The notes under the pieces: model-generated
The model's input: only the letters and a program-made list of their open reading frames with translations
Database searches by the model: none
Told to the model about the DNA's origin: nothing
Origin: an uncultured Gammaproteobacteria bacterium
GTDB taxonomy: Bacteria; Patescibacteriota; Patescibacteriia; UBA9934; GWF2-40-263
Assembly: GCA_964538435.1 (NCBI GenBank)
Contig: CAZIDX010000004.1
Coordinates: 769-64,768, forward strand
Length of the DNA: 64,000 bases
Direction: 5' to 3'
Shown: in pieces, positions 3,464 to 51,592 of the stretch
Position numbering within the stretch: position 1 is the first letter of the stretch
Layout: each line of letters begins with the position of its first letter
Program-made: the position numbers and the translations under genes

Positions 3464-3476
3464 CATGGTCATTTAT

Positions 3477-3494
3477 ACGACGATCGACGGTTAT
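3477..3494. repeat. 18-bp direct repeat copy 1 (acgacgatcgacggttat), operator-like, abutting ATG of CDS 3495
   Basis: 16/18 identical to 4053..4070; contains CGATCG core. Confidence 0.5.
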
Positions 3495-4028
3495 ATGCCT
3501 AAGAAAGAATCAAGAAAACGTTCGATGAGTTTTTATTCAAGAGCTTCACAAATTTTGATGGGGATTTTTGAGTATGGAGATTTAGTAATTGAGAATATTC
3601 ATCAGCCAGGATTGGCTTTTCGATATGGGCTTGAGAACGCGATCGAGATTCGTGATTCTAAGGAAAAAGCTCTTCAAAAAAGAGAGCTTCGTCGGTTGGA
3701 AGAAAGGAGATTGGTGAAGATTGATAAAACTGCCAAGTTGTATGTTGTGCGTTTGAGTGATGATGGTTTATTGGAGGTTTTGAGGCAAAAAATTAACCAG
3801 GCATATCCATTACCAGACGGGAGGGATTGCATTGTGGTGTTTGATATTCCTGAGTCAAAAAGAAAGCTTAGGGATGGCTTGAGAAGGCTTTTAAAAGACG
3901 TCGGTTTTTTCTGTATTCAGAGAAGTGTTTGGATGTCTCCATTTGATGCTGGCGAGGCGTTCGCCGAGTTTTTTCGATTTGTTGGAAATGAAGACTGGGT
4001 TAGGGTATACACAGGGATAAGGCATTGA
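3495..4028 (+). CDS. Winged-helix (N-terminal) + Cas2/VapD-like (C-terminal) domain protein, PaaX-like architecture; putative regulator or toxin-like module
   Basis: ORF 3465..4028, ATG 3495 preferred; N-terminal 'RRLEERRLVKIDKTAKLYVVRLSDDG' helix+wing; C-terminal 'CIVVFDIPESKRKLRDGLRRLLKDVGFFCIQRSVWMSPFD' matches Cas2 beta1-alpha1-beta2 pattern. Confidence 0.5.
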   Translation: MPKKESRKRSMSFYSRASQILMGIFEYGDLVIENIHQPGLAFRYGLENAIEIRDSKEKALQKRELRRLEERRLVKIDKTAKLYVVRLSDDGLLEVLRQKINQAYPLPDGRDCIVVFDIPESKRKLRDGLRRLLKDVGFFCIQRSVWMSPFDAGEAFAEFFRFVGNEDWVRVYTGIRH

Positions 4029-4489: not shown

Positions 4490-6532
4490 ATGGCGATTCA
4501 CTTAACATCTTCTGTTTCTGAGCTTCCTGGAATCGGGGGAAAGGCTCTTGCGGCGCTTCGGTCGCTTGGGATTTCTTCTGTGCGAGACCTCTTATGGTAT
4601 GTGCCGTTTCGGTATGATGATTTTTCTGTTATTCGTGGAGCTGGTGAGGTGAAGGCTGGGGAGACTGTGACGGTGATTGGAGTAGTCCAATCGATTACGT
4701 CTCGGCCTGCGCAGAATCGTAAACTCAAGATTGTCGATGGGGTGATTGAGGATGAGACTGGGGAGCTTAAGGTGACTTGGTTTAATCAGGCCTATCTTGA
4801 GAAGACGCTTCCGCCTGGGACAAAGGTTGCGGTTGCTGGGCGCGTGGAAAATCGCTACGGGCTCTCGATGACCAGTCCGGTGATTGAGAAGAGAAAGGCA
4901 AGCGTGCACACTGGGCGCATTGTTCCAGTGTATGGCCTCACAGGTTCGCTTACGATGAGACGACTGCGCGATGCCATTCATGCTGCGCTCCCGGCTGCGA
5001 AGGAAATGACTGACTGGCTTCCTGAAGAGATTGCAAAGAAAGAAATTTTCCCGAGCTTGGCTGAGGCGATTCGGGCTGTGCATTTTCCTGAGACTCAGGC
5101 TGAGCTTACGTCTGCGATTGATCGCTTGAAGTTTGGTGAGCTGTTTTTGCATCAACTTATGTTTGCGCATGTGCGGCGTGAGCGAGAGAAAAAGTCTGCG
5201 CATTCGATTAGGCTTGATGAGGAGTTTTTGAAAGAGTTTGCTGCTGGTTTGCCGTTTGAGCTGACTAGCTCGCAGAAAAAAGCAATCTGGAGCACTGTGC
5301 AGGATACGGCTGGCAGTGAGCCAATGAATCGTTTGCTTGAGGGAGATGTTGGGTCTGGAAAAACAGTCGTGGCTGCGGCTGCGATTGCGAATGTGCTCAA
5401 GGGTGGGCTTACGGCCGTGTACCTTGCACCAACAGAGATTCTGGCCATGCAGCAGCATCAGGCGCTATCGAAGTTTTTGTCTGAGCCAGTGGGGCTTCTT
5501 ACACGCTCGCAGTCAAAGCTTGGGGAGGAAGAGATTGCAAAGACTGAGATCCTCGATCAGGCCAAGGGGCGATGCATTGTTGGAACGCATGCACTCCTTC
5601 AGGATAAAATTAAGATTGATGATGTCGCGCTTGTTGTGGTGGATGAGCAGCATCGTTTTGGTGTGGAGCAAAGGCATGCGCTACTTGAGACCGGAAACAA
5701 GCCATCGCCGCATCTTTTGTCAATGACAGCCACACCGATTCCGCGCTCACTATCACTTACAATTTTTGGAGACCTCGATCTGTCAGTACTCACTGAGATG
5801 CCGGTCGGGAGAAAGCCTGTAGCTACTGCGGTTGTTCCTCGAGCAGAGCAACAAGGAATGTGGACGCATGTGCTTGAGCAGGTCAAAGAGGATAGGCAAG
5901 TGTTTGTAGTGTGTCCGCTCATTGATCCATCAGACAAAATGGGAGCAAAGTCAGTAGCCGAGGTCGCACGCGAGCTTTCTAAAGGTCCTCTCAAGAGCCT
6001 CAAGATCGCGCAGCTTCATGGAAGGCTCAAAAGCGAGGAGAAGGAACAGGCGATCAAAAAGTTTCGCGATGGCAAGATCGACGTCCTTGTCTCTACAACG
6101 GTTGTTGAGGTAGGAGTGGATATTCCAAACGCGAGCGTGATGGTGATTGTTGGAGCAGATAGGTTTGGTTTGGCGCAACTGCATCAGCTTCGTGGGCGCG
6201 TTGGGCGTTCTGATATTCAGTCGTATTGTTATCTCTTGCCAGGGGAGGAGATGAGTGTGAATGGAGTGGAGAGGCTCAAAACCATGGAGGTAACCAACGA
6301 TGGGTTTAAGCTGGCAGAGAAAGATTTGGAGCTGCGTGGTCCAGGGAATATTTTTGGAAATGCGCAGTCAGGGTTTCCGGACTTTGTGCTGGCGACCGTG
6401 GCGGATGTGGAACTCATGTCCCGCGCGCGCGAGTGGTCAGGGAAGCTTCTTGGTGCTGATCCGGAGCTTGAGAGGCATCCTTTGATTAGGGATAGGGTAA
6501 AGAGGGAGTTTGATTCGGTTCATTTGGAATAA
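4490..6532 (+). CDS. recG: ATP-dependent DNA helicase RecG
   Basis: ORF 4442..6532; wedge domain, GSGKT Walker A, DEQHRFGV, TATPIPRSL, QLHGR, RGRVGR motifs; start 4472 or 4490. Confidence 0.9.
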   Translation: MAIHLTSSVSELPGIGGKALAALRSLGISSVRDLLWYVPFRYDDFSVIRGAGEVKAGETVTVIGVVQSITSRPAQNRKLKIVDGVIEDETGELKVTWFNQAYLEKTLPPGTKVAVAGRVENRYGLSMTSPVIEKRKASVHTGRIVPVYGLTGSLTMRRLRDAIHAALPAAKEMTDWLPEEIAKKEIFPSLAEAIRAVHFPETQAELTSAIDRLKFGELFLHQLMFAHVRREREKKSAHSIRLDEEFLKEFAAGLPFELTSSQKKAIWSTVQDTAGSEPMNRLLEGDVGSGKTVVAAAAIANVLKGGLTAVYLAPTEILAMQQHQALSKFLSEPVGLLTRSQSKLGEEEIAKTEILDQAKGRCIVGTHALLQDKIKIDDVALVVVDEQHRFGVEQRHALLETGNKPSPHLLSMTATPIPRSLSLTIFGDLDLSVLTEMPVGRKPVATAVVPRAEQQGMWTHVLEQVKEDRQVFVVCPLIDPSDKMGAKSVAEVARELSKGPLKSLKIAQLHGRLKSEEKEQAIKKFRDGKIDVLVSTTVVEVGVDIPNASVMVIVGADRFGLAQLHQLRGRVGRSDIQSYCYLLPGEEMSVNGVERLKTMEVTNDGFKLAEKDLELRGPGNIFGNAQSGFPDFVLATVADVELMSRAREWSGKLLGADPELERHPLIRDRVKREFDSVHLE

Positions 6533-6718
6533 GTTTCGCTTTCGCTCGAATTTTTCTACGGGAGCTTGGGGCGGCCACGAGGTCGTAGGTTAAAAACTCG
6601 CTGCAGATGTTTTTAACCTACGACCTCGAACGGCCGTTTGGCGTCCTGGGCCACTGGGTAGGGTGGTGTTACGACGCTTCGGCACATCGAGTGCCTCGCG
6701 TCGTCATCTTCATTGGGT
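6533..6718 (+). repeat. Family-1 structured interspersed repeat, copy 1 (two conserved hairpins: 6579-6627 and 6671-6704)
   Basis: Aligned by eye with 39821-40012 and 51311-51515; shared core 'ggggcggccacgaggtcgtaggttaaaaa...tttttaacctacgacctcgaacggccgtttggcgtcctgggcc'. Confidence 0.7.
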
Positions 6719-6730
6719 TCTGAGAAATGA

Positions 6731-6759
6731 TTGACACATAGTCCCAATAGGGCTATTCT
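6731..6759 (+). promoter_or_regulatory. sigma70-like promoter (-35 ttgaca, 17-bp spacer, -10 tattct) for NADAR gene
   Basis: Consensus -35, good spacing, GGAGGA RBS at 6768-6773. Confidence 0.45.
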
Positions 6760-8741: not shown

Positions 8742-10064
8742 TTATCCTCCTGAGTCAGTACAGTATTTTAAGTAGATTTCAGCGGCTTTTGCTGCATAGT
8801 GAGCGGCTTGTGCTCCAGATCCGTTGTAGGCACACATGGCCATAGCAAGGTCGCCAGTTCGATCAAGTCGTTTTTTTACAAATGTTGCTTGAGCTCTGAG
8901 GGTGTTGCTAATACCTCCCCAGTTTGTTCCACCAGTTGAGAGTTTAGTGTCAAAGTACTCTGCACATGAGTCTAGTGCGACTTGGCAAGTCCAGCATACA
9001 GTGGTGTTACAATCTGGAAATTTTGTTGTGTCAGGCGGCCAGGTTGGGTCATAGGATTCATTGCAGTGCGCAGCAACTTGTTCTCCTCGTGTGTGGTCTC
9101 TGGACACTGTACGCACGCAACATTCTTGTCCAAGGGTTGATTCAAAAGATGTTGGCATGAACTGCGCAATCCCAATTTCCCCACATGGTCCACGCTGCGA
9201 GGAATCGTAGTCAATTGTTCCGCTTGTTTCAATCTGTAGATGAGTTGCAAGCTGGAAACGATCAGCTCCTGTTTCGTCTGCAATAGAGTTAACGACGGCG
9301 GTAAGCTCATCAGTCCAACCAGAAGGTTTTTTTAAAACAGTTGCAGAGCAGGCTTTGACCATCCCTTCGACTCCTTCACAGTTTTCAAGTGAGAATGATG
9401 TAAGCGCATCTTCTGCAATGTTGTCTAACGAGATTGTTCGAAGGCGGACAAGTTCGGGGTTCACTGTCCAAAGAATGAGCCAAGTGCTTGAAAGTAGGAT
9501 AAGGCCAATGACAGCGTTTTTGATGCGCTCCTTTGCTTTTGATGTATCTCCATATCCGCCAGCTGCAGCATACTGAAATCCTCCAATCATGACCATGACG
9601 ATTGCAGCAATGGTGGCTATTCCCAAAATGTACTTATAAGCTCCTGCGATGTAGGCACCCAAGAAGGCGATGTGCAGCACCTTACCATCGACCTCAATGG
9701 CATCTGACAGGTCTATGCCTGGGATTTCAACACTGAGGAGCGGGGTGATGGTTTGTGTGCTGTTGTTAGATACAGCTCCTGTGTTTCCAGGTGCGGTTGA
9801 GTAGCCAGAGTTTGTGCACGTTGTCTTACAATCCATGATGTGGCTTGTGCCATCTGGGCACGAGCAGCCAGCATCAGAGAGAATAGTGGCGCCGCTGTCT
9901 CCGCAGTCTGAAATACATTCGTCCGTTGCATCAACTGAGTGCGCAATATTATCTGAGTCATAACAAGTACAACCTCCAGCAGCAAGAGTGGTCAATGGGA
10001 AAAGGGCACTCAGTGTGAGTGTGGAAAGTGCTAGGAGGATTGAAATTCGTTTTGTTAGTTGCAT
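8742..10064 (-). CDS. Modular exported protein: signal peptide + Cys-rich domain + conserved membrane-hairpin module + lytic transglycosylase (SLT-like) domain
   Basis: Signal peptide; module '...IPGIDLSD...FLGAYIAGAYKYILGIATIAAIVMVMIGGFQYAAAGGYGDTSKAKERIKNAVIGLILLSSTWLILWTVNPELVRL'; SLT-like 'ETSGTIDYDSSQRGPCGEIGIAQFMPTSF'. Confidence 0.6.
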   Translation of the reverse strand: MQLTKRISILLALSTLTLSALFPLTTLAAGGCTCYDSDNIAHSVDATDECISDCGDSGATILSDAGCSCPDGTSHIMDCKTTCTNSGYSTAPGNTGAVSNNSTQTITPLLSVEIPGIDLSDAIEVDGKVLHIAFLGAYIAGAYKYILGIATIAAIVMVMIGGFQYAAAGGYGDTSKAKERIKNAVIGLILLSSTWLILWTVNPELVRLRTISLDNIAEDALTSFSLENCEGVEGMVKACSATVLKKPSGWTDELTAVVNSIADETGADRFQLATHLQIETSGTIDYDSSQRGPCGEIGIAQFMPTSFESTLGQECCVRTVSRDHTRGEQVAAHCNESYDPTWPPDTTKFPDCNTTVCWTCQVALDSCAEYFDTKLSTGGTNWGGISNTLRAQATFVKKRLDRTGDLAMAMCAYNGSGAQAAHYAAKAAEIYLKYCTDSGG

Positions 10065-11044
10065 GATCGAGACATTTTTGGATTTTCAAAATGCCAGGCT
10101 TCTGAGTCGAGCAGGCAAAAGCCCTGTGCTTTCATTGCTGAAATAAGAATGCTGTGCCCTGCATTTTTTCTGCATTTATCTACTGCAGGGTTGTTGTCGC
10201 ATTGTGCTTTTGTTACGCAGGGCGAGCCGCTGCATGTTGCCCACATATCGATAGCACGTCCAGTTGTGTGTGGACAGTTTTCTGCTTTTCCGTCTCGGAG
10301 CATGCAGGCGTAGGTAATCCCATCTTTTGGATCACATGTAGCAGAACCTGGTGGGTTGTTGCAGTATTTGAGAATCAGAGAAGTTTGTTTTTCAACGGTT
10401 CGAAAGCTTGAGGCAATGTAGATGCCATATCCTTGAGCATCTACTTGTGCTGCTGCCGCTTCAATCAAGGGAGCTAAGTCTTTTGGTACTTCATTCACTC
10501 CTGGACCTGTTATGTTTGCTGCAACAGGTGCTTGGAATTCAACTGCTACATTACCACCTGTAATGTTTTCTTCTGATCCAAGGGTTGCAAGGCTGATGTC
10601 GTCTACGACATCCACTTCAACAGGACCAAGGCGAACAAGTTCGGGGTTTACGGTCCAAAGTAGGAGATAGACAGATGCTAAGAGCACAAGACCTGTGATA
10701 GCGTCTTTTATTCTCTTCTTTGCTTTTGATGTTTCTCCATGTCCTCCAGCCAGCGCGTATTGAAGGCCGGCAATCATGATCATGACAATGGCAACAATAA
10801 CAGCTGCGTCAAGCAAGTAATCGTAGATGGCCGAGATGTAATCGGAAAGATAATTTACACTCATGACATTCCCTTTGATGCTGATTTCAGAAAGTTTGAG
10901 TCCGGGGATGTCTACGTTAAGAATAGGGGTCTGGGTTTTGACTGAGCTGGTGGTGGCGTGTGCAACAAGGGGGGAGACGAGAAAGAGTCCAGCGATGAGT
11001 TGGAGGAGGAGGCGTGCTGGTTTTGTGAGGAGAGTTTTTTTCAT
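10055..11044 (-). CDS. Modular exported protein: signal peptide + membrane-hairpin module + peptidase M15 (VanY/LAS-like) domain
   Basis: ORF 10055..11077, start MKKTLLTKP at 11044; shared module '...SDYISAIYDYLL...GLQYALAGGHGETSKAKKRIKDAITGLVLLASVYLLLWTVNPELVRL'; M15 motifs SSFRTVEKQ, HTTGRAIDMW, SEAWHFE. Confidence 0.6.
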   Translation of the reverse strand: MKKTLLTKPARLLLQLIAGLFLVSPLVAHATTSSVKTQTPILNVDIPGLKLSEISIKGNVMSVNYLSDYISAIYDYLLDAAVIVAIVMIMIAGLQYALAGGHGETSKAKKRIKDAITGLVLLASVYLLLWTVNPELVRLGPVEVDVVDDISLATLGSEENITGGNVAVEFQAPVAANITGPGVNEVPKDLAPLIEAAAAQVDAQGYGIYIASSFRTVEKQTSLILKYCNNPPGSATCDPKDGITYACMLRDGKAENCPHTTGRAIDMWATCSGSPCVTKAQCDNNPAVDKCRKNAGHSILISAMKAQGFCLLDSEAWHFENPKMSRSCN

Positions 11045-11045
11045 G

Positions 11046-12413
11046 TTAGTAATCCAGGCAGGCAAGTAGGTGACCACCCTTTGTTTTCCAGCTCATGTGT
11101 ACGTGTGGTCCAGAGGTGTTTCCTGACTGCTCTACAACTTGGCAGTCACAATTTTCAAGTTTGTTTGGGTCTGTGCATGGAGTTCCTTCGACATTGCACC
11201 ATCCGTATTTTGCTGTGGCCCATCCTGCAGGAGCTGTTTGTCCATCACAGCAGCGCCCACCAACATGCCCAATGATGTCTCCTTGTGAAACGGCCTGTCC
11301 AGCAAGAATAGCCCCAGAATCATTTACAAAATCTTTTGCGTGACAAATGGTTATGTAGGCTCCAGCAGCATCACCTGTTCCTTCAAGGTAAATTCGATTT
11401 CCACATTTGTTGTTTGTGTCTTCTTGCTTGGCGTAGGTGACAATACCATCAAAAGGTGCGTACACACTTGAACCCCAACCTGCTCCCCAGTCCAGGTGTC
11501 TGATTTTTTTGTAATCACCGTTTGCTCCGTAGTCAAACCAGTGGTGGTTTCCGCAGGATGGTTGAGCGCCGCCCACGGGGGAAGTAACGCTTTGCGCGAT
11601 TTTGCACTCACCATGATCTTTTGCCTTTGCAACAATAGCATCGCATGTTGGGCGGGGGAGGGATCCGAATTTTGCCCCCTCAAAGCCTCTTGTTGCCATA
11701 TCGAGCTCGAGCTCGTCGACTTCTGTAAGGCGGATGGCGTCAAAAAATGTCGTGTTTGGATTTACGACCCACAAGATAAAGTACACGAAGAAGAGGAGGA
11801 CTAGTCCGATTACAGCGTCTTTTATCCTCTTTTTTGCTTTTCCAGTTTCTCCGTGACCTCCAGCAAAGGCGTATTGCAGACCGCCAATCATGATAATGAC
11901 AATTGAAATGATTGCAGCAATACTCAGAAGATATGTATAGACACCTGTGATGTATTCACCAAGCCAGTTGATTTCCATTTCTTCACCATCTGTGACGATT
12001 CTTGAAAAGTAGACACCTGGAATTTCGACCTCGAGTTCTGGTTCGATGTAGCCTTTTTCTGCATATTCAATATCAGATTTTTTTTGCGTTGTGTAACTAG
12101 CGTTTTCAGCAATGCACACCGCAGTGCAATCAAGTTCAGGCAATTCTCCAGTGGCTGGGCAGTTGCAAATACCCGCGTTTGTTTCCATGGCGTCATCATC
12201 GTTGCAGTCGATGATACATTGGGCCGTACCGCTTACGATTACGAGTTTGTCGCCATCGTAGCATTCACAGGCAAGAGCTTGCGTACAAACAAAAAACACC
12301 CCCATTACTACAGACAGGAATGAAAAAAGACACACGAACTTGAGTCTAAACTTAGTGTTGAGAACGTGTGTCATAACAGGAGAATTATTGAAGGGCAGTG
12401 AGTTGCTCTGCAA
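11046..12413 (-). CDS. Modular exported protein: signal peptide + Cys-rich domain + membrane-hairpin module + peptidase M23 (LytM-like) domain
   Basis: Shared module '...GEYITGVYTYLL...GLQYAFAGGHGETGKAKKRIKDAVIGLVLLFFVYFILWVVNPN'; M23 motifs HLDWGAGWGSSVYAPFDG, ICHAKDF, GDIIGHVGG, SGPHVHMSW; start 12413 or 12374. Confidence 0.6.
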   Translation of the reverse strand: MQSNSLPFNNSPVMTHVLNTKFRLKFVCLFSFLSVVMGVFFVCTQALACECYDGDKLVIVSGTAQCIIDCNDDDAMETNAGICNCPATGELPELDCTAVCIAENASYTTQKKSDIEYAEKGYIEPELEVEIPGVYFSRIVTDGEEMEINWLGEYITGVYTYLLSIAAIISIVIIMIGGLQYAFAGGHGETGKAKKRIKDAVIGLVLLFFVYFILWVVNPNTTFFDAIRLTEVDELELDMATRGFEGAKFGSLPRPTCDAIVAKAKDHGECKIAQSVTSPVGGAQPSCGNHHWFDYGANGDYKKIRHLDWGAGWGSSVYAPFDGIVTYAKQEDTNNKCGNRIYLEGTGDAAGAYITICHAKDFVNDSGAILAGQAVSQGDIIGHVGGRCCDGQTAPAGWATAKYGWCNVEGTPCTDPNKLENCDCQVVEQSGNTSGPHVHMSWKTKGGHLLACLDY

Positions 12414-21879: not shown

Positions 21880-22013
21880 CAAAATTGATAAAAACTGGTA
21901 AAACGTGGGTATCTTGAATGTGGAACACGGTGTGAATCCGTGACTGTCTCTCTGCAACGGTATAACCCCCCAACCCATTAAGTCCGATCTTCATCCAAGT
22001 GCACCCCAAAAAT

Positions 22014-22035
22014 CGCCTCAGAGAGGGCGGTTTTT
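22014..22035 (+). terminator. Intrinsic terminator after tyrS (cgcctc-agaga-gggcgg + TTTTT)
   Basis: GC stem + T-run ~135 bp after stop. Confidence 0.5.
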
Positions 22036-22061
22036 ACTTTGAACGTTTTTTTGTGATGGTT

Positions 22062-22157
22062 GTGAGTTTGCTGCATGAGAACAGCGCGAGGCGGAGCCGG
22101 GCCGTCTCGCAGGATAGACGACCACCACCTCGCACTGTTCTCATGCAGCAAACTCAC
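22062..22157. repeat. Family-2 element, site 1: 30-bp near-perfect palindrome arms (gtgagtttgctgcatgagaacagcgcgagg / cctcgcactgttctcatgcagcaaactcac) enclosing conserved core
   Basis: Core 'ggcggagccgggccgtctcgcaggatagacgaccaccacctc' shared with 37303-37346; arms unrelated between sites. Confidence 0.65.
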
Positions 22158-22238
22158 ATGGTGATTGACGTTCTCTGTGGTTTGGGGTGGGTGTTGTCTT
22201 GCTAAATATGTTTGAAAACGTTATCATTTAGCTGATTT

Positions 22239-23354
22239 ATGGGAACAATTATACTTTTCATCCTTGTCTTGTCCCTCCTTGTTTTTGTGCATGAACTGGG
22301 GCATTTTTTCATGGCTCGGCGCATGGGAATGCGTGTTGAAGAATTTGGATTTGGATTTCCACCGAAAATTTTTGGTGTGAGGCGCGGAGCAACAGAATAC
22401 ACAGTGAATTGGATCCCGCTTGGTGGGTTTGTGAGGATCAAAGGTGAGTCTGGGGATCACAAGTTCGACAGTGACAGTTTTGCTTCAAAAAGTGCTTTGC
22501 AAAGGTTTGTTGTTTTGATTGCGGGAGTGGCTATGAACATTGCTCTTGCTGGAGTGCTTTTTTCAATCGGTTTCATGATTGGCTTACCGAGCGTGATTGA
22601 TGACACATTGTCTGCGAATGCTGTTGTAAGCGATGAGAACATTATGGTCATGAGTGTTCTTGAAGGCTCTCCTGCTGAGGAGGTTGGCATGACACCTGGT
22701 GATGAGCTTGTCTCGATTGATAATCGTGTTTTTGAAAATGATGCTCAAGTTTTTGAGTACATCACAGAGGATGCAGGTGAGAGTCTGAGTGTTGTTGTTG
22801 AGAAGGTTGATGAAGTAAAGATGACGTATGAGCTTAGCCCTGCATTTATTGAAGAGCTTGATAGAGAGGCTTTGGGAGTTGGGTTTGTTTCGACTGGGAC
22901 GGTTGCTTATCCTTTTTTCTCAGCCATTGGACATGGAATTACAACCACGGGATTGATAACATGGGAGGTGATTAAAGCGTTTTATGAGATTATTCGGAAC
23001 TTGATTGTGACGCAGGAGGTTGGCATTGAGATTTCTGGACCTGTTGGGATCGCTGTGATGACAGGGGAGGTTGCAGCGCTTGGCCTTGTGTATCTCATTC
23101 AGTTCACAGCCATTCTTTCAATCAACCTAGCGATCATTAATGCGTTTCCGTTCCCAGCGCTGGATGGAGGAAGGATCTTGTTCTTGTTTGTTGAGAAGAT
23201 TAGAGGGAAGGCGCTTGATGATCGTATCGAGAACGTGATTCACAATTCGGGGTTTCTTCTATTGATGCTACTCGTTGTTTTGGTGACTTACAGAGACTTC
23301 CTTACTTTTTCTGATCAAATTTTAGGCGCTATTAAAGGCGTAATTGGAGTGTAA
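22239..23354 (+). CDS. rseP: RIP metalloprotease RseP (site-2 protease, M50, PDZ)
   Basis: HELGHFFMARRMG HExxH in TM1; PDZ region; second TM block. Confidence 0.8.
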   Translation: MGTIILFILVLSLLVFVHELGHFFMARRMGMRVEEFGFGFPPKIFGVRRGATEYTVNWIPLGGFVRIKGESGDHKFDSDSFASKSALQRFVVLIAGVAMNIALAGVLFSIGFMIGLPSVIDDTLSANAVVSDENIMVMSVLEGSPAEEVGMTPGDELVSIDNRVFENDAQVFEYITEDAGESLSVVVEKVDEVKMTYELSPAFIEELDREALGVGFVSTGTVAYPFFSAIGHGITTTGLITWEVIKAFYEIIRNLIVTQEVGIEISGPVGIAVMTGEVAALGLVYLIQFTAILSINLAIINAFPFPALDGGRILFLFVEKIRGKALDDRIENVIHNSGFLLLMLLVVLVTYRDFLTFSDQILGAIKGVIGV

Positions 23355-37235: not shown

Positions 37236-37270
37236 CCCTGGGGTAAACAACGATGTCCCAGGGTTTTCTG
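37236..37270 (+). terminator. Intrinsic terminator (ccctgggg-loop-cccaggg + TTTT)
   Basis: Hairpin + T-run directly after stop 37229. Confidence 0.45.
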
Positions 37271-37278
37271 ATACGCTC

Positions 37279-37370
37279 GTTGCTGTGTGTGATTTCATTC
37301 ATTCGGCGGAGCCGGGCCGTCTCGCTAGATAGACGACCACCACCTCATGAATGAAATCACACACAGCAAC
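37279..37370. repeat. Family-2 element, site 2: perfect 24-bp palindrome arms (gttgctgtgtgtgatttcattcat / atgaatgaaatcacacacagcaac) enclosing conserved core 37303-37346
   Basis: Core identical to site 1 except 2 nt (cgcAGgat vs cgcTAgat). Confidence 0.65.
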
Positions 37371-37461
37371 TTCGCTCCAGTTGGGTTATCAATATTTTGT
37401 TCTTCCGATAGAGTTTACGTTGGCAGTTGTGCCTTTTTTTGTTACGCTTGGGCCGAAATCT

Positions 37462-38850
37462 ATGAGCAAGCCAACCTATCACATCACCACCTATGGGTGT
37501 CAGATGAACAAGAATGACTCCGAGCGAATGGAGGCGCTTCTTCAGGCTGTGGGTATGGAGTCGGTTGATGGTCCTGAGAAGGCGGATTTGGTTGTACTAA
37601 ATTCGTGTTCAGTGAGGAAGAGTGCAGAGGATCGAATTTTCGGTCGGGTGCGGACATTGAACAAGATGAAGAAGAAGCGTCCAGGGATGATTATTGCGAT
37701 CACTGGATGCATGCCAGGTAGAGATCGGGATCGTGAATTTCAAAAAAAGATGCCTGGGGTGGATCTTTATTTTCCAACTGCGGATATGGGCCAGCTTCCG
37801 CGTTGGATTGGAGAGCTTCGGCCTGAGCTTGTGAATAGCACTGATGCGGTTGAGGATTATATGAAGCTTAAACCTGAGCGACATTCTGTGCGGCAGGCGT
37901 TTGTTTCGATTCAGACTGGGTGTAACAAGTTTTGTACGTACTGTGTTGTGCCATTTGCGCGTGGGCTTGAGAAGAATCGGCCGCTTAAGCAGATCCTTGA
38001 TGAGATAGAAGATCTTGTTGCTCATGGGTGTGTGGAGATTACGCTCTTAGGTCAGACAGTGAACAGTTATCAAGCACCTGATCCAGACACGATCTCAAAA
38101 AAAAATCCGTACACAGATCATTTTGCTGCGCTCCTTTGGGAGGTGAACCAGATCAAAGGTATTGCTCGTTTGCATTACACTGCGCCTCATCCTGTTCACA
38201 TGAATGATGAGATTATTGATGCAATGACGCTTCCTGCGCATCTCAACTTTATTCATATCCCTGTTCAGTCAGGTGATGATGAGGTGCTGCGTCGCATGAA
38301 TAGACGGTACACAGCAGAGGAGTTTTTGGCTGTAATTGAAAGGATTAAAGCAAAGATTCCTACAATTGCGATTGGGACAGATATCATTGTTGGGTTCTCA
38401 GAAGAGACTGAAGAGCAGTTTGAAAAGACCGTTGAGCTTTATAAGAATGTTGGGTTTGATATTTCTTACACTGCGCAGTACTCAGAGCGTTCTGGCACTG
38501 CAGCGTCGAGTGCATTTCCTGATACGGTTTCACATAAGGAAAAGAAACGGAGGTGGCGAGTGCTTCAGGCTCTTATGGAAAAGATGACGACTGAGAAGAA
38601 TCAGGTTTATGTTGGCAAGACTGTTTCTGTTTTGGTTGAGCGTCATGAACCACCAAAGGTTTCAGATGAGATGATGAAGATGCCGGAGAAAGTAAAAGAA
38701 TTACTTGAGAGTCATCCAGGGTATTGCTATGGCAACTCTCGTGAGATGAAGCTTGTGAGATTTAAGTCTGACGCATCAATGATCGGTGAGATTGTTGATG
38801 TAAAAGTAACTCGCGCGGATGTGTGGGTGCTTGAAGGGCAAATTGTATGA
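37462..38850 (+). CDS. miaB: tRNA-2-methylthio-N6-dimethylallyladenosine synthase MiaB (radical SAM)
   Basis: ORF 37351..38850; start MSKPTYHITTYGCQMN at 37462; CNKFCTYC radical-SAM motif; TRAM C-terminus. Confidence 0.85.
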   Translation: MSKPTYHITTYGCQMNKNDSERMEALLQAVGMESVDGPEKADLVVLNSCSVRKSAEDRIFGRVRTLNKMKKKRPGMIIAITGCMPGRDRDREFQKKMPGVDLYFPTADMGQLPRWIGELRPELVNSTDAVEDYMKLKPERHSVRQAFVSIQTGCNKFCTYCVVPFARGLEKNRPLKQILDEIEDLVAHGCVEITLLGQTVNSYQAPDPDTISKKNPYTDHFAALLWEVNQIKGIARLHYTAPHPVHMNDEIIDAMTLPAHLNFIHIPVQSGDDEVLRRMNRRYTAEEFLAVIERIKAKIPTIAIGTDIIVGFSEETEEQFEKTVELYKNVGFDISYTAQYSERSGTAASSAFPDTVSHKEKKRRWRVLQALMEKMTTEKNQVYVGKTVSVLVERHEPPKVSDEMMKMPEKVKELLESHPGYCYGNSREMKLVRFKSDASMIGEIVDVKVTRADVWVLEGQIV

Positions 38851-39797
38851 AAAAGAAAATCATTGCTGTGGTAGGTCCGACAGCTGCGGGTAAAACCTCG
38901 CTTGGAATTACGATCGCTAAGGAGATTGGTGGCGAGGTGATCTCGGTTGACTCGCGTCAGATTTATCGAGGTATGGATATTGGGACTGGAAAGGAGCCAG
39001 GAGAGTGGGTGGAACATGACATTGAGAAGGGGGGAAGTATTGAACAACTTTATGGTGCAAGGAAGCGTCTCGTAATTGATGGGGTGGTGCACTGGGGGAT
39101 TGATATCGTAGACCCGGATCAGGTGTACTCAGCGTCTGAGTTTAAGGATTATGCAGAGCAGAAGATCGATGAGATTGTGTCTCGCGGGCATGTTCCTGTG
39201 CTTGTTGGTGGAACTGGGTTCTGGCTTAAGGCGATTGTTGAGAATTTGGACCTTGGATCTGTGGCTGCAGATGAAAAACTCAGAGAAGAGCTTGGAACGC
39301 AAGGGGTGGGGTATTTGTTTGCTGAATACAAGCGACTTGATCCTGAGGGGGCTCAAACTATTGATCGAGATAATAAAAGAAAGCTTGTTAGAGCGCTTGA
39401 GGTTACAAAGCTGACTGGTAAGCCGTTTTCAGAGCTTAAAACGTCTGGAGAGCCAAAATACAATGTTTTAACGCTTGGAATTACTCATGAGAGAGATGTT
39501 TTAGCTGAGAGAATTAGTACGCGCGTGGAACAAATGGTGGCAGAGGGGCTGGTTGATGAGGTGAGGGGGCTCAGGGAGAAATATGGGTGTGATATCGAGT
39601 CAATGACAGGGATTGGATATCGGCAGGTTTGTCGATTTTTAGAGGGTGAAGATTCGCTTGAAGAAGCAATCGAAGAGATAAAAAAAGACTCTCGCAGGTA
39701 TGCTAAGAGGCAGATGACTTGGTGGAAACGTGACGGCAGTATTCAATGGGTGCGAGACTTTGGTGAAGCTGTTCCATTGATTGATGCTTTTCTTTAA
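38847..39797 (+). CDS. miaA: tRNA dimethylallyltransferase MiaA
   Basis: GPTAAGKTSL P-loop, DSRQIYRGMDIGTGK. Confidence 0.85.
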   Translation: MKKKIIAVVGPTAAGKTSLGITIAKEIGGEVISVDSRQIYRGMDIGTGKEPGEWVEHDIEKGGSIEQLYGARKRLVIDGVVHWGIDIVDPDQVYSASEFKDYAEQKIDEIVSRGHVPVLVGGTGFWLKAIVENLDLGSVAADEKLREELGTQGVGYLFAEYKRLDPEGAQTIDRDNKRKLVRALEVTKLTGKPFSELKTSGEPKYNVLTLGITHERDVLAERISTRVEQMVAEGLVDEVRGLREKYGCDIESMTGIGYRQVCRFLEGEDSLEEAIEEIKKDSRRYAKRQMTWWKRDGSIQWVRDFGEAVPLIDAFL

Positions 39798-39820
39798 ATC
39801 TTTCCTTTCCTTTACCTTTA

Positions 39821-40012
39821 ATTGGTTTCGCTTTCGCTCGGATCTCGCTGCGGGGGCTTGGGGCGGCCACGAGGTCGTGATTTAAAAATTCGTTGTAAAT
39901 TTTTTTAAACCACGACCTCGAACGGCCGTTTGGCGTCCTGGGCCTATAGGTGGGGTGGTGGGGGCTGCGACCTGTCAGGCCGTCGAGGCCTTCAGGTCGC
40001 CATCTCCATGGA
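39821..40012 (+). repeat. Family-1 structured interspersed repeat, copy 2 (hairpins 39867-39919 and 39967-40000)
   Basis: Alignment with copies 1 and 3; preceded by CT-rich tract 39800-39820. Confidence 0.7.
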
Positions 40013-40034
40013 GGATGAGCTTTAGAAAATCAAC

Positions 40035-40062
40035 AGCCCCCGGATCCTGCGTGGATTCGGGG
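40035..40062 (-). terminator. Terminator of pentapeptide-repeat gene (agcccccg...cgggggct hairpin; U-run on minus)
   Basis: 8-bp GC stem followed on minus strand by ttgattttct. Confidence 0.5.
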
Positions 40063-51268: not shown

Positions 51269-51310
51269 GATTGTATTCTTTTCCTCCTTCCTTTTCCTCC
51301 CTTCCTTTTT

Positions 51311-51515
51311 AATTGGTTTCGCCTTCGCTCGAACCTTGCTCGGATCTTGCTGCGGGGGTTTGGGGCGGCCACGAGGTCGTAGGTTAAAAACTCGCAGTAA
51401 ATGTTTTTAAACTACGACCTCGAATGGCCGTTTGGCGTCCTGGGCCTATAGGTGGGGTGGTGGGGCTCTGCGACGTGTCGGCACGTCGAGTGCCTCACGT
51501 CGCCATTTCCACGGG
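51311..51515 (+). repeat. Family-1 structured interspersed repeat, copy 3 (hairpins 51370-51422 and 51470-51503), preceded by CT-rich tract 51283-51308
   Basis: Alignment with copies 1 and 2. Confidence 0.7.
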
Positions 51516-51592
51516 GGATTCGGTTGTGTAAACAAAGAAGCACCCGGAGACGAGCTGCGGGTGCAACTTGTCTCGCGGGTGCGAGAGGGGGG

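Follow-up and report, generated by a model that had tools for sequence, protein, structure and literature searches.

Family-2, a candidate DNA hairpin insertion with a common core and copy-specific stems in Candidatus Uhrbacteria

Introduction

MITEs, REPs and REPINs are short, non-coding, intergenic sequences that form a long hairpin, are variably present and often lie past terminators (REPINs: PMC3116915). Their arms are conserved and their middle is variable. Here, we describe a hairpin family, denoted Family-2, that is similar to them in size, structure and location, but has the opposite layout: the centre is common to all copies, while the arms are specific to each copy. It was found at two sites in a 64,000-nt stretch of DNA (the window), or about 6% of a genome of roughly 1 Mb, which is assigned to Candidatus Uhrbacteria (Patescibacteria/CPR) by its RseP, MiaB and TyrS homologues. 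The inverse-of-MITE layout had been pointed out in an original prediction made from the DNA letters, and it was borne out by the analysis below. On our best reading, Family-2 consists of non-coding DNA hairpins that were inserted within one small clade of Candidatus Uhrbacteria.

Perfect hairpins can also arise by mutation. Template switching in replication creates perfect stems in one event, and fixes or extends existing ones (PMC8794818); it also expands inverted repeats (PMC13100816). Hairpins of this origin (Monttinen and Loytynoja 2022, PMC8794818; PMC10710096; PMC13100816) resemble Family-2 in their perfect stems, formed in a single step, in the multi-base compensatory differences that arise without G.U intermediates, and in the growth of a stem around a small hairpin. 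Template-switch events are sporadic, however, and have no common centre, whereas in Family-2 the same 40–42-nt nucleus is found at three independent loci. A copied element is therefore presumably involved besides a mutation mechanism.

Two other systems invite comparison. The SDR repeats of Nostoc and its relatives, 21–27 nt in length and reportedly described by Elhai and co-workers in 2008, are said to be small non-coding mobile repeats that nest in other repeats or hairpins and vary at orthologous sites, like Family-2. Unlike Family-2, they have to our knowledge not been reported on copy-specific long perfect stems. The attC sites of integrons are recombination sites defined by a folded single strand, and the sequence of much of the stem is little conserved; they conserve the base of the stem (the R''/R' boxes, RYYYAAC/GTTRRRY) and vary the centre. 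Family-2 was rejected as an attC site, since the bases of its three stems (TGTGAG.., GTTGCT.. and CAAGAT..) contain no R boxes and there are no cassettes. No integrase domain was detected in the 17 open reading frames flanking the sites (10 in the window and seven in the contig carrying the third copy, described below). The literature searched held nothing relevant on inverted target duplication or on elements with a conserved loop and a variable stem.

Core and Hairpins at the Two Sites

The core of Family-2 was defined as the 42-nt pattern GGCGGAGCCGGGCCGTCTCGCNNGATAGACGACCACCACCTC. A pattern search of the window placed it on the + strand at two sites with 0 mismatches; no third match was present in the window at ≤3 mismatches, and the number expected from 100 shuffles was 0. 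The original prediction had already described a core common to these two sites, although its inner coordinates (22092–22127 and 37303–37346) were slightly off. At both sites, the core is enclosed by a pair of arms:

22061–22089, + strand: site 1 left arm, TGTGAGTTTGCTGCATGAGAACAGCGCGA, copy-specific, located by inverted repeat search
22090–22131, + strand: site 1 core, exact pattern match, 71% GC
22130–22158, + strand: site 1 right arm, reverse-complementary to the left arm except at one position
37279–37302, + strand: site 2 left arm, GTTGCTGTGTGTGATTTCATTCAT, copy-specific
37305–37346, + strand: site 2 core, exact pattern match, with loop CGCTAGAT
37347–37370, + strand: site 2 right arm, the perfect reverse complement of the left arm, 24 nt

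The complete inverted repeats comprise 22061–22094 with 22125–22158 at site 1 (34 nt, 94% complementary) and 37279–37309 with 37340–37370 at site 2 (31 nt, 90% complementary), as pairing at both sites extends past the arms to the core ends, where GGCGG meets CCACC. The site 1 core is laid out as GGCGG / AGCCG / GGCCGTCT / loop CGCAGGAT / AGACGACC / A / CCACC / TC, and its terminal TC overlaps with the first two bases of the right arm. The one mismatch in the site 1 arms is an A at 22135 facing a C at 22084, a C.A that becomes G.U on the minus strand. At site 2, an unpaired TC (37303–37304) faces the terminal TC of the core (37345–37346), leaving a TC/TC mismatch between the arms and GGCGG...CCACC. 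These measurements agree with the perfect 24-bp arms predicted for site 2; for site 1, where 30 bp with one C.A had been predicted, the arms are 29 nt long and the C.A is present.

The core folds into an 8-bp inner stem (GGCCGTCT/AGACGACC) with an 8-nt loop, separated by an asymmetric internal loop from the 5-bp outer helix GGCGG/CCACC. The GC content of the core is 71%, compared to 48% for the window. RNA folding of both sites gave z-scores of −7.6 to −12.6, with the best shuffle still weaker than the real fold, and single-strand DNA folding of both sites against shuffles gave z-scores of −6.7 to −10.2. The fold energy was −79.5 kcal/mol for the minus strand and −67.6 kcal/mol for the plus strand at site 1, and −65.0 and −52.2 kcal/mol, respectively, at site 2. 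The minus strand folds better because three C.A positions on the + strand, two in the core and one in the site 1 arm, become G.U (G.T) there. This bias is only a hint, as it consists of three positions, two of which are common by descent.

Both hairpins begin 11–25 nt past an intrinsic terminator, and 80–91 nt separate their end from the start codon that follows on the + strand, that of rseP at 22239 (site 1) or miaB at 37462 (site 2), in agreement with the context originally predicted. The genes neighbouring Family-2 hairpins are tyrS, rseP, miaB and purA. A promoter for rseP (TTGCTA-17-TATCAT), conserved in all relatives compared, is located downstream of hairpin 1. The Family-2 hairpins thus occupy non-coding spacers, with a terminator before them and the next gene's promoter after them, and no promoter or terminator belonging to the hairpins themselves was found at either window site. 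In the public annotation, MiaB (499 aa, P0121) begins at an ATG within the right arm of hairpin 2 (window 37351–37462), whereas MiaB homologues and the conserved N-terminus MSKPTYHITTYGCQMN begin at 37462; the annotated start inside the hairpin is probably wrong. In practical terms, Family-2 hairpins break short-read assemblies, and one of them caused this probable mis-annotation.

At gathering thresholds, Rfam 15 identified only two tRNAs in the window, so that the core, which had not been recognized in the original prediction, has no match to a known non-coding RNA at these thresholds. With permissive E-values, the two hairpins matched only generic miRNA-precursor models, far below threshold, and no self-cleaving ribozyme or riboswitch was matched in the Family-2 hairpin.

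The very strong predicted structure could nevertheless belong to a functional hairpin, in which the core would be the apical domain of an RNA that binds a protein or ligand, or a cruciform DNA site, and the stem would be free to vary as long as it is paired, as in IRE- or SECIS-like elements. Such a role would be consistent with an apical domain that is perfectly conserved in two species, with three transition-type mismatches that all favour the minus strand, and with the embedding of the third copy in Family-1, a repeat that resembles a structured RNA on the plus strand (see below). However, the hairpins lie downstream of terminators and upstream of the conserved rseP promoter, have no promoter or terminator of their own, match no Rfam family beyond generic hairpin models, and are absent from the same genes in relatives. 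There is also almost no G.U in 75 arm pairs, and the wobble-favoured strand of Family-2 (minus) is opposite to that of Family-1 (plus). We consider a functional hairpin improbable, and the regulatory site on an RNA stem that the original prediction offered as an alternative is not favoured, due to the placement between terminator and promoter, the absence in relatives and the near-pure Watson–Crick stems. If the core were a binding site after all, it would mark an as yet undescribed regulator in an uncultured lineage.

Assembly and Distribution

The window is part of a 99,893-bp NCBI contig, and both halves of site 1 are also present in independent Logan contigs of SRR8146440. The contigs break inside the core: one (L002) ends at 22116 and the other (L001) begins at 22103, with a 14-nt overlap. 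No 31-mer is common to the two sites or to the arms. The break may reflect a drop in coverage at the hairpin or heterogeneity of the loop tip. Since a conserved centre between reverse-complement flanks resembles an unremoved hairpin adapter, and short-read contigs stop within the core, a hairpin adapter or a foldback chimera from sequencing or assembly had to be weighed. However, ordinary unique sequence resumes on both sides after only 24–29 bp, the junctions recur in the independent Logan assembly, another copy comes from an unrelated project (FLOH01), and the core has no match in phage, plasmid, viral or GTDB collections. An origin of this kind is extremely improbable; the Family-2 hairpin is not an assembly artefact, because independent assemblies carry the hairpins with ordinary flanks on both sides.

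A wider search for the core, as suggested along with the original prediction, yielded a third copy with yet other arms in a closely related metagenomic genome, FLOH01000056.1 (6270–6311 of locus L003). The kinship of this genome is apparent from a hypothetical membrane protein without a Pfam family that is 93% identical to that of the window genome. The FLOH01 copy has a 26-bp arm pair with one mismatch, unlike the arms in the window, and its loop differs at one position. The three copies of the core are identical at 39 of 42 positions, and just three bases at the loop tip vary. These read differently in each copy (AGG, TAG and AGT; 22111–22113 and 37326–37328 in the window), and thus seem to be set per copy, like the arms. 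The hairpins are 98, 92 and 92 nt in total length at site 1, site 2 and FLOH01, respectively.

The GTDB collection was scanned with one genome per species (185,579 species representatives). The first scan, using a pattern centred on the core, gave 0 matches; this pattern was too strict, as the G at core position 24 varies. When the right half of the core was used in another GTDB scan, 29 matches were obtained, all of them chance matches inside coding sequence. Two core patterns had no match in IMG/VR, and the core was not found in phage and plasmid collections. A scan of metagenomes with the left half of the core gave 10 loci, nine of which were chance matches in high-GC coding sequence; only the FLOH01 locus was genuine. 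No further copy was present in the 5.3 kb past the window, giving a total of two copies in about 69 kb. Family-2 is thus rare, narrowly distributed and lineage-restricted.

Empty Sites in Relatives

The orthologous spacer of site 1 was compared in the four nearest relatives available, L042 (TyrS 93% and RseP 79% identical), L043, L045 and L046, and that of site 2 in two, L047 (MiaB 79% identical) and L048 (74%). Site 1 is empty in all four: the core and the right-arm region are missing and the left arm is absent but for 6 nt, while the conserved element downstream of tyrS, the terminator and the rseP promoter are retained. Likewise, alignment showed that site 2 is empty in both L047 and L048, which lack the hairpin as well as the 63 nt that follow it. 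The features at the boundaries of the two insertions are as follows:

22041–22046, + strand: GAACGT, 5' half of an outer hairpin, pairs with 22168–22173 in DNA folds
22057–22060 and 22159–22162, + strand: TGGT, abuts both ends of hairpin 1; a possible short target duplication, although 4 bp could be chance
22168–22173, + strand: ACGTTC, 3' half of the outer hairpin, which encloses hairpin 1 in the DNA fold
37272–37278 and 37371–37377, + strand: TACGCTC and TTCGCTC, abut the ends of hairpin 2; a direct repeat at 6/7 bases
37371–37433, + strand: unique stretch of 63 nt, absent from L047 and L048, with no other copy in the window or the fetched loci

At site 2, the entire insert of ≈155 nt (37279–37433) is bracketed by ancestral TTTTTGCTACGCTC copies at 37264–37278 and 37436–37448. 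The original prediction had proposed comparing empty and filled sites, and the relatives indeed have orthologous spacers without the core and without all but 6 nt of the arms. Since neither site is filled in the outgroups, repeated loss is a less parsimonious scenario than gain in the window lineage. Judged by these alignments, the Family-2 copies are lineage-specific insertions that were recently moved or created. With a third copy in existence, empty orthologous sites and no match to a known non-coding RNA, the original description of a conserved core within site-specific palindromes stands.

Presence/absence polymorphism at orthologous sites is a hallmark of MITEs that Family-2 shares. The direct repeats TGGT/TGGT and TACGCTC/TTCGCTC may be a counterpart of their fixed-length target duplications, although the lengths are unequal (4, 7 and 0 bp across the copies, with no direct repeat at the FLOH01 hairpin ends) and repeats this short could be due to chance. 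Family-2 was nevertheless rejected as a MITE, because the terminal inverted repeats are not common to the copies, only the centre is. A REP or REPIN with a RAYT was also rejected on account of the copy-specific arms, the two copies in about 69 kb and the absence of a GTAG/CGTC head; no RAYT or transposase was seen among roughly 30 window open reading frames scanned.

The repeats exactly at the hairpin boundaries of both window sites would be expected if the 92–98 bp palindrome transposed as a whole, the core alone being recognized by the machinery and hence unchanged in active lineages, while the arms drifted and were re-perfected by hairpin-templated correction, for example by rebuilding one arm on the template of the other in a single-stranded intermediate. 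The similar total lengths of the three hairpins, a weak similarity between arms at equal distance from the core (see below) and the absence of the arms from the empty sites are in line with this scheme. However, it does not account for direct repeats of different lengths, and the 39 identical core positions, next to a loop tip and arms of seemingly random sequence, would require very strong selection on each base, even at stem positions capable of covariation. Moreover, among the three copies no siblings with common arms were seen, nor was a transposase. Transposition of the entire hairpin is thus unlikely in our view.

The small hairpin GGACGT-15 nt-ACGTCC occurs in L042 at the same place as the outer helix GAACGT...ACGTTC of the window. 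The compensatory pair between the two sequences shows that the site 1 element occupies an older hairpin's loop. This raises the alternative that a mobile core of 40–46 bp enters the loops of pre-existing long hairpins by recognizing their structure, so that the arms would be older host hairpins. Besides the compensatory change in L042, the FLOH01 copy is found where a Family-1 hairpin with 19–20 bp arms normally stands. A precedent for targeting of hairpin loops is IS1397 in REP/BIME palindromes (reference 41 in PMC3116915). On the other hand, the long arms are present in none of the empty sites, the FLOH01 arms are not significantly similar to those of the Family-1 hairpin, and perfect 24–29 bp post-terminator hairpins are otherwise unseen in the window, repeat families aside. 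The original suggestion that the core targets hairpin loops thus agrees with the location of site 1 in an older loop and with the replacement of the Family-1 apical part in FLOH01, but not with the lack of long arms in the empty sites. Insertion into long hairpins that were already in place appears rather improbable.

Pairing and Sequence of the Arms

The arms have no other match in the window or in the fetched loci. They are not copies of other window sequence, as might be the case for antisense guides, since the longest match was 11 nt, or 14/15 with one mismatch. Capture of foreign, spacer-like DNA was likewise rejected, as three arm patterns had no match in IMG/VR. A BLAST search with the site 1 hairpin gave no match in phages and one chance match of 26 nt in plasmids (E = 0.9). 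The GC content of the arms, counted from the sequences, is host-like (37–48%). Pairwise alignment of arms gave p = 0.14–0.94, with the exception of site 2 and FLOH01 (p = 0.006, uncorrected), for which 13 of 16 positions are alike in a 16-nt stretch. A three-way test gave p = 0.017, which rose to 0.11 when the three core-proximal bases were left out. That the arms are mostly unrelated between sites was thus predicted correctly.

In spite of these differences in sequence, 97.4% of cells in an alignment of the three hairpins pair, a degree of pairing reached by 0 of 500 shuffles. Of 29 arm pairs in the alignment, 16 have changed on both sides, with one Watson–Crick pair replaced by a different one, and one has changed on one side, to G.U. 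There is a single G.U in 75 arm pairs. Stems under selection as RNA normally gather G.U intermediates. The nearly pure Watson–Crick, wholesale-different stems therefore argue for reverse-complement copying at the DNA level rather than selection at the RNA level. Exact reverse-complement arms with double Watson–Crick differences are also what distinguishes template-switch hairpins.

The arms contain two mismatches in 79 pairs, or about 1.3% per base, and the Family-2 copies look young. At this rate, about 1.5 changes would be expected at the 117 non-tip core positions and 0 were observed, which fits neutrality; identity of the core by itself therefore needs no selection.

The outer 6 nt of the site 1 left arm, TGTGAG, are also present in the empty site of L042 (ATGGCTGTGAG), and the inverted copy, CTCACA, is new. 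A reconstruction of the ancestral site that keeps TGTGAG and removes CTCACA aligned with a score of 38, compared to 33.5 for exact removal of the hairpin. As the best reconstruction retains TGTGAG, the site 1 palindrome reaches into pre-existing DNA, as expected for fold-back in situ. The duplication of flanking DNA by foldback, one of the mechanisms suggested originally, is therefore consistent with these outer 6 nt, but the other 23 nt of the arm were not seen in relatives.

Relationship to Family-1

The window contains a second repeat, Family-1, which is 230–250 nt long, always on the + strand, the G-rich one, and located directly downstream of genes. The copies are:

6509–6737, 39787–40039 and 51278–51540, + strand: three full copies in the window
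8622–8704 of L049, + strand: fourth copy, just past the window
6173–6535 of L003, + strand: the copy in FLOH01

Family-1 includes a conserved hairpin of 19–20 bp, and the + strand fold of its consensus contains numerous G.U pairs as well as 10 pairs with compensatory changes. No Rfam family matches it, and the relatives L047 and L048 lack it after miaA. It has the appearance of a multi-copy RNA or mobile element of Uhrbacteria that has yet to be described. Together with Family-2, it adds to the evidence that the tiny Uhrbacteria genomes carry several structured intergenic repeat families described in no database. Unlike those of Family-2, the arms of the Family-1 hairpin are conserved between copies; it is also AT-rich at the tip and accompanied by further covarying hairpins.

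In FLOH01, the Family-2 hairpin stands in the exact place of the Family-1 central hairpin, in the same orientation, on the basal helix GGTCG/CGACC. The loops of the two families have the motif CTCGC(A/T)..A(T/A) in common, as seen in CTCGCAGTATAG (FLOH01) and CTCGCTAGATAG (site 2) for Family-2 and in CTCGCAGTAAATG and CTCGCTGCAGATG for Family-1. The loop 9-mer CTCGCAGTA is identical in the FLOH01 core and the Family-1 copy at 51278–51540, CTCGCT..AGAT is common to site 2 and the copy at 6509–6737, and the closing helix CGAGG/CCTCG occurs in site 1, the FLOH01 core and Family-1. Shuffle tests of this loop similarity gave p values from <0.001 to 0.1. A Family-1 profile matched the FLOH01 locus in the Family-1 flanks only. 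Taken together, these likenesses in loop and position make a relationship of the Family-2 core to the Family-1 hairpin, or its derivation from it, a good lead.

Decayed Family-1 sequence was rejected as the origin of the flanks at sites 1 and 2, since there was no profile hit and the supposed G-rich motif is common on the + strand generally. Nor was the right arm in FLOH01 accepted as Family-1 apical sequence that had already been in place, the similarity being not significant (p about 0.18). The FLOH01 copy of Family-1 carries an extra insert of 89 nt (6353–6441), 40 nt downstream of the Family-2 hairpin, which holds an inverted 12-nt exact copy of the start of the core (CCCGGCTCCGCC, 6371–6382) and a GTCATCCTGAGCGGAGCGAAGGATC motif.

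Both Family-2 cores and all Family-1 copies are oriented along the + strand. The GC skew is +0.09 to +0.27 in every 8-kb bin of the window (1–64000), whatever the orientation of the genes, and 27 of 28 G-rich motifs are on the + strand, which is probably the leading strand throughout.

Origin of the Hairpins

How could the same core have acquired a different perfect stem at each site? The reading that we tentatively favour, although we would not call it probable, is that a hairpin nucleus related to Family-1 was copied to new sites, and that the stem was built or kept perfect by fold-back or template-switch synthesis. The copied unit would be the GC-rich hairpin nucleus of 40–42 nt, with its 5-bp outer helix, internal loop, 8-bp stem and 8-nt loop, and it would have been copied to a few intergenic places, namely terminator–promoter spacers and the loops of existing hairpins. 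The long stem would lie outside the conserved unit, being made locally and kept Watson–Crick: fold-back or template switching during insertion, repair or replication would copy the sequence beside the nucleus to the opposite side in reverse-complement form. The outcome would be a separate palindrome of 24–29 bp for every copy. The route by which the nucleus is copied, the origin of the arms by reverse-complement copying, and a selfish or neutral rather than functional nature are what we infer from these patterns. If the stems do arise at insertion, Family-2 would be a natural example, on a small scale, of long perfect palindromes growing from a hairpin nucleus in one step, and would link mobile DNA with template-switch mutagenesis.

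Several observations weigh against this origin. Only three copies are known, so that each pattern is drawn from n = 3. The roughly 30 open reading frames scanned in the window yielded no transposase, recombinase or reverse transcriptase; a cognate transposase or recombinase, which the original prediction suggested looking for elsewhere in the genome, was thus not encountered in these reading frames, from a window that covers about 6% of the genome. A total of 23 of the 29 nt of the site 1 arm and the entire site 2 arm have no counterpart in relatives at ≈79% protein identity. Possibly, the unmatched sequence arrived with the core, or was present in the window lineage only, or the relatives are too diverged. 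The direct repeats at the ends of both window hairpins are what insertion of the entire palindrome in one piece might leave, and the similar lengths and the likeness of the site 2 and FLOH01 arms would also fit such a unit with fast-evolving arms. As for the tie to Family-1, the Family-1 hairpins are not the sequences most similar to the core under a genomic null, and an nhmmer profile built from the three Family-1 copies gave no hit at sites 1 and 2 even at E < 10. Finally, the G.U/G.T bias may point to a single-stranded, strand-specific form, for which the model has no explanation.

A bolder variant, which we regard as unlikely, is an "inverse MITE": a mobile nucleus defined by its structure that would build a new copy-specific stem from adjacent DNA by self-primed fold-back of a single-stranded intermediate. 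It would probably be recognized by a single-strand-specific enzyme, and would land preferentially in the loops of hairpins already present. If true, this would amount to transposition with inverted rather than direct duplication of the adjacent DNA, and would be new.

Other Features of the Window

Directly downstream of tyrS, at 21894–22035 on the + strand, is an element resembling the AdoCbl (cobalamin) riboswitch, with a score of 37.1 bits compared to the gathering score of 50. The corresponding element in L042 (556–702) scored 41.7 bits, also below gathering. It is conserved at the nucleotide level in L042, L043, L045 and L046 and ends in an intrinsic terminator. As the conserved rseP promoter comes after it, the element is not an obvious rseP leader.

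A second palindromic construct is found at 1483–1597, where two inverted GTCATTCTGAGCGTAGCGAAGAATCTC-type motifs lie inside site-specific arms of 27 nt. This construct is bracketed by direct copies of a hairpin of ≈45 nt, at 1404–1452 and 1605–1645, which show a compensatory change (CCCCGCA/TGCGGGG compared to CCCCGGA/TCCGGGG). The GTCATTCTGAGCGTAGCGAAGAATCTC-type motif is also present in L003 at 6414–6440, and GGCGGAGTCCGGG at 1628–1640 resembles the start of the Family-2 core. The core and this hairpin repeat have GGCGGAG(N)CCGGG in common; a relationship was not accepted, as the overall similarity is marginal (p = 0.07).

A gene for a PaaX-like protein with a Cas2-like central domain is located at 3465–4028 on the + strand. 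At 8742–12413 on the minus strand, three consecutive genes encode type IV secretion pilin-like domains, and one of these also encodes an M23 peptidase domain.

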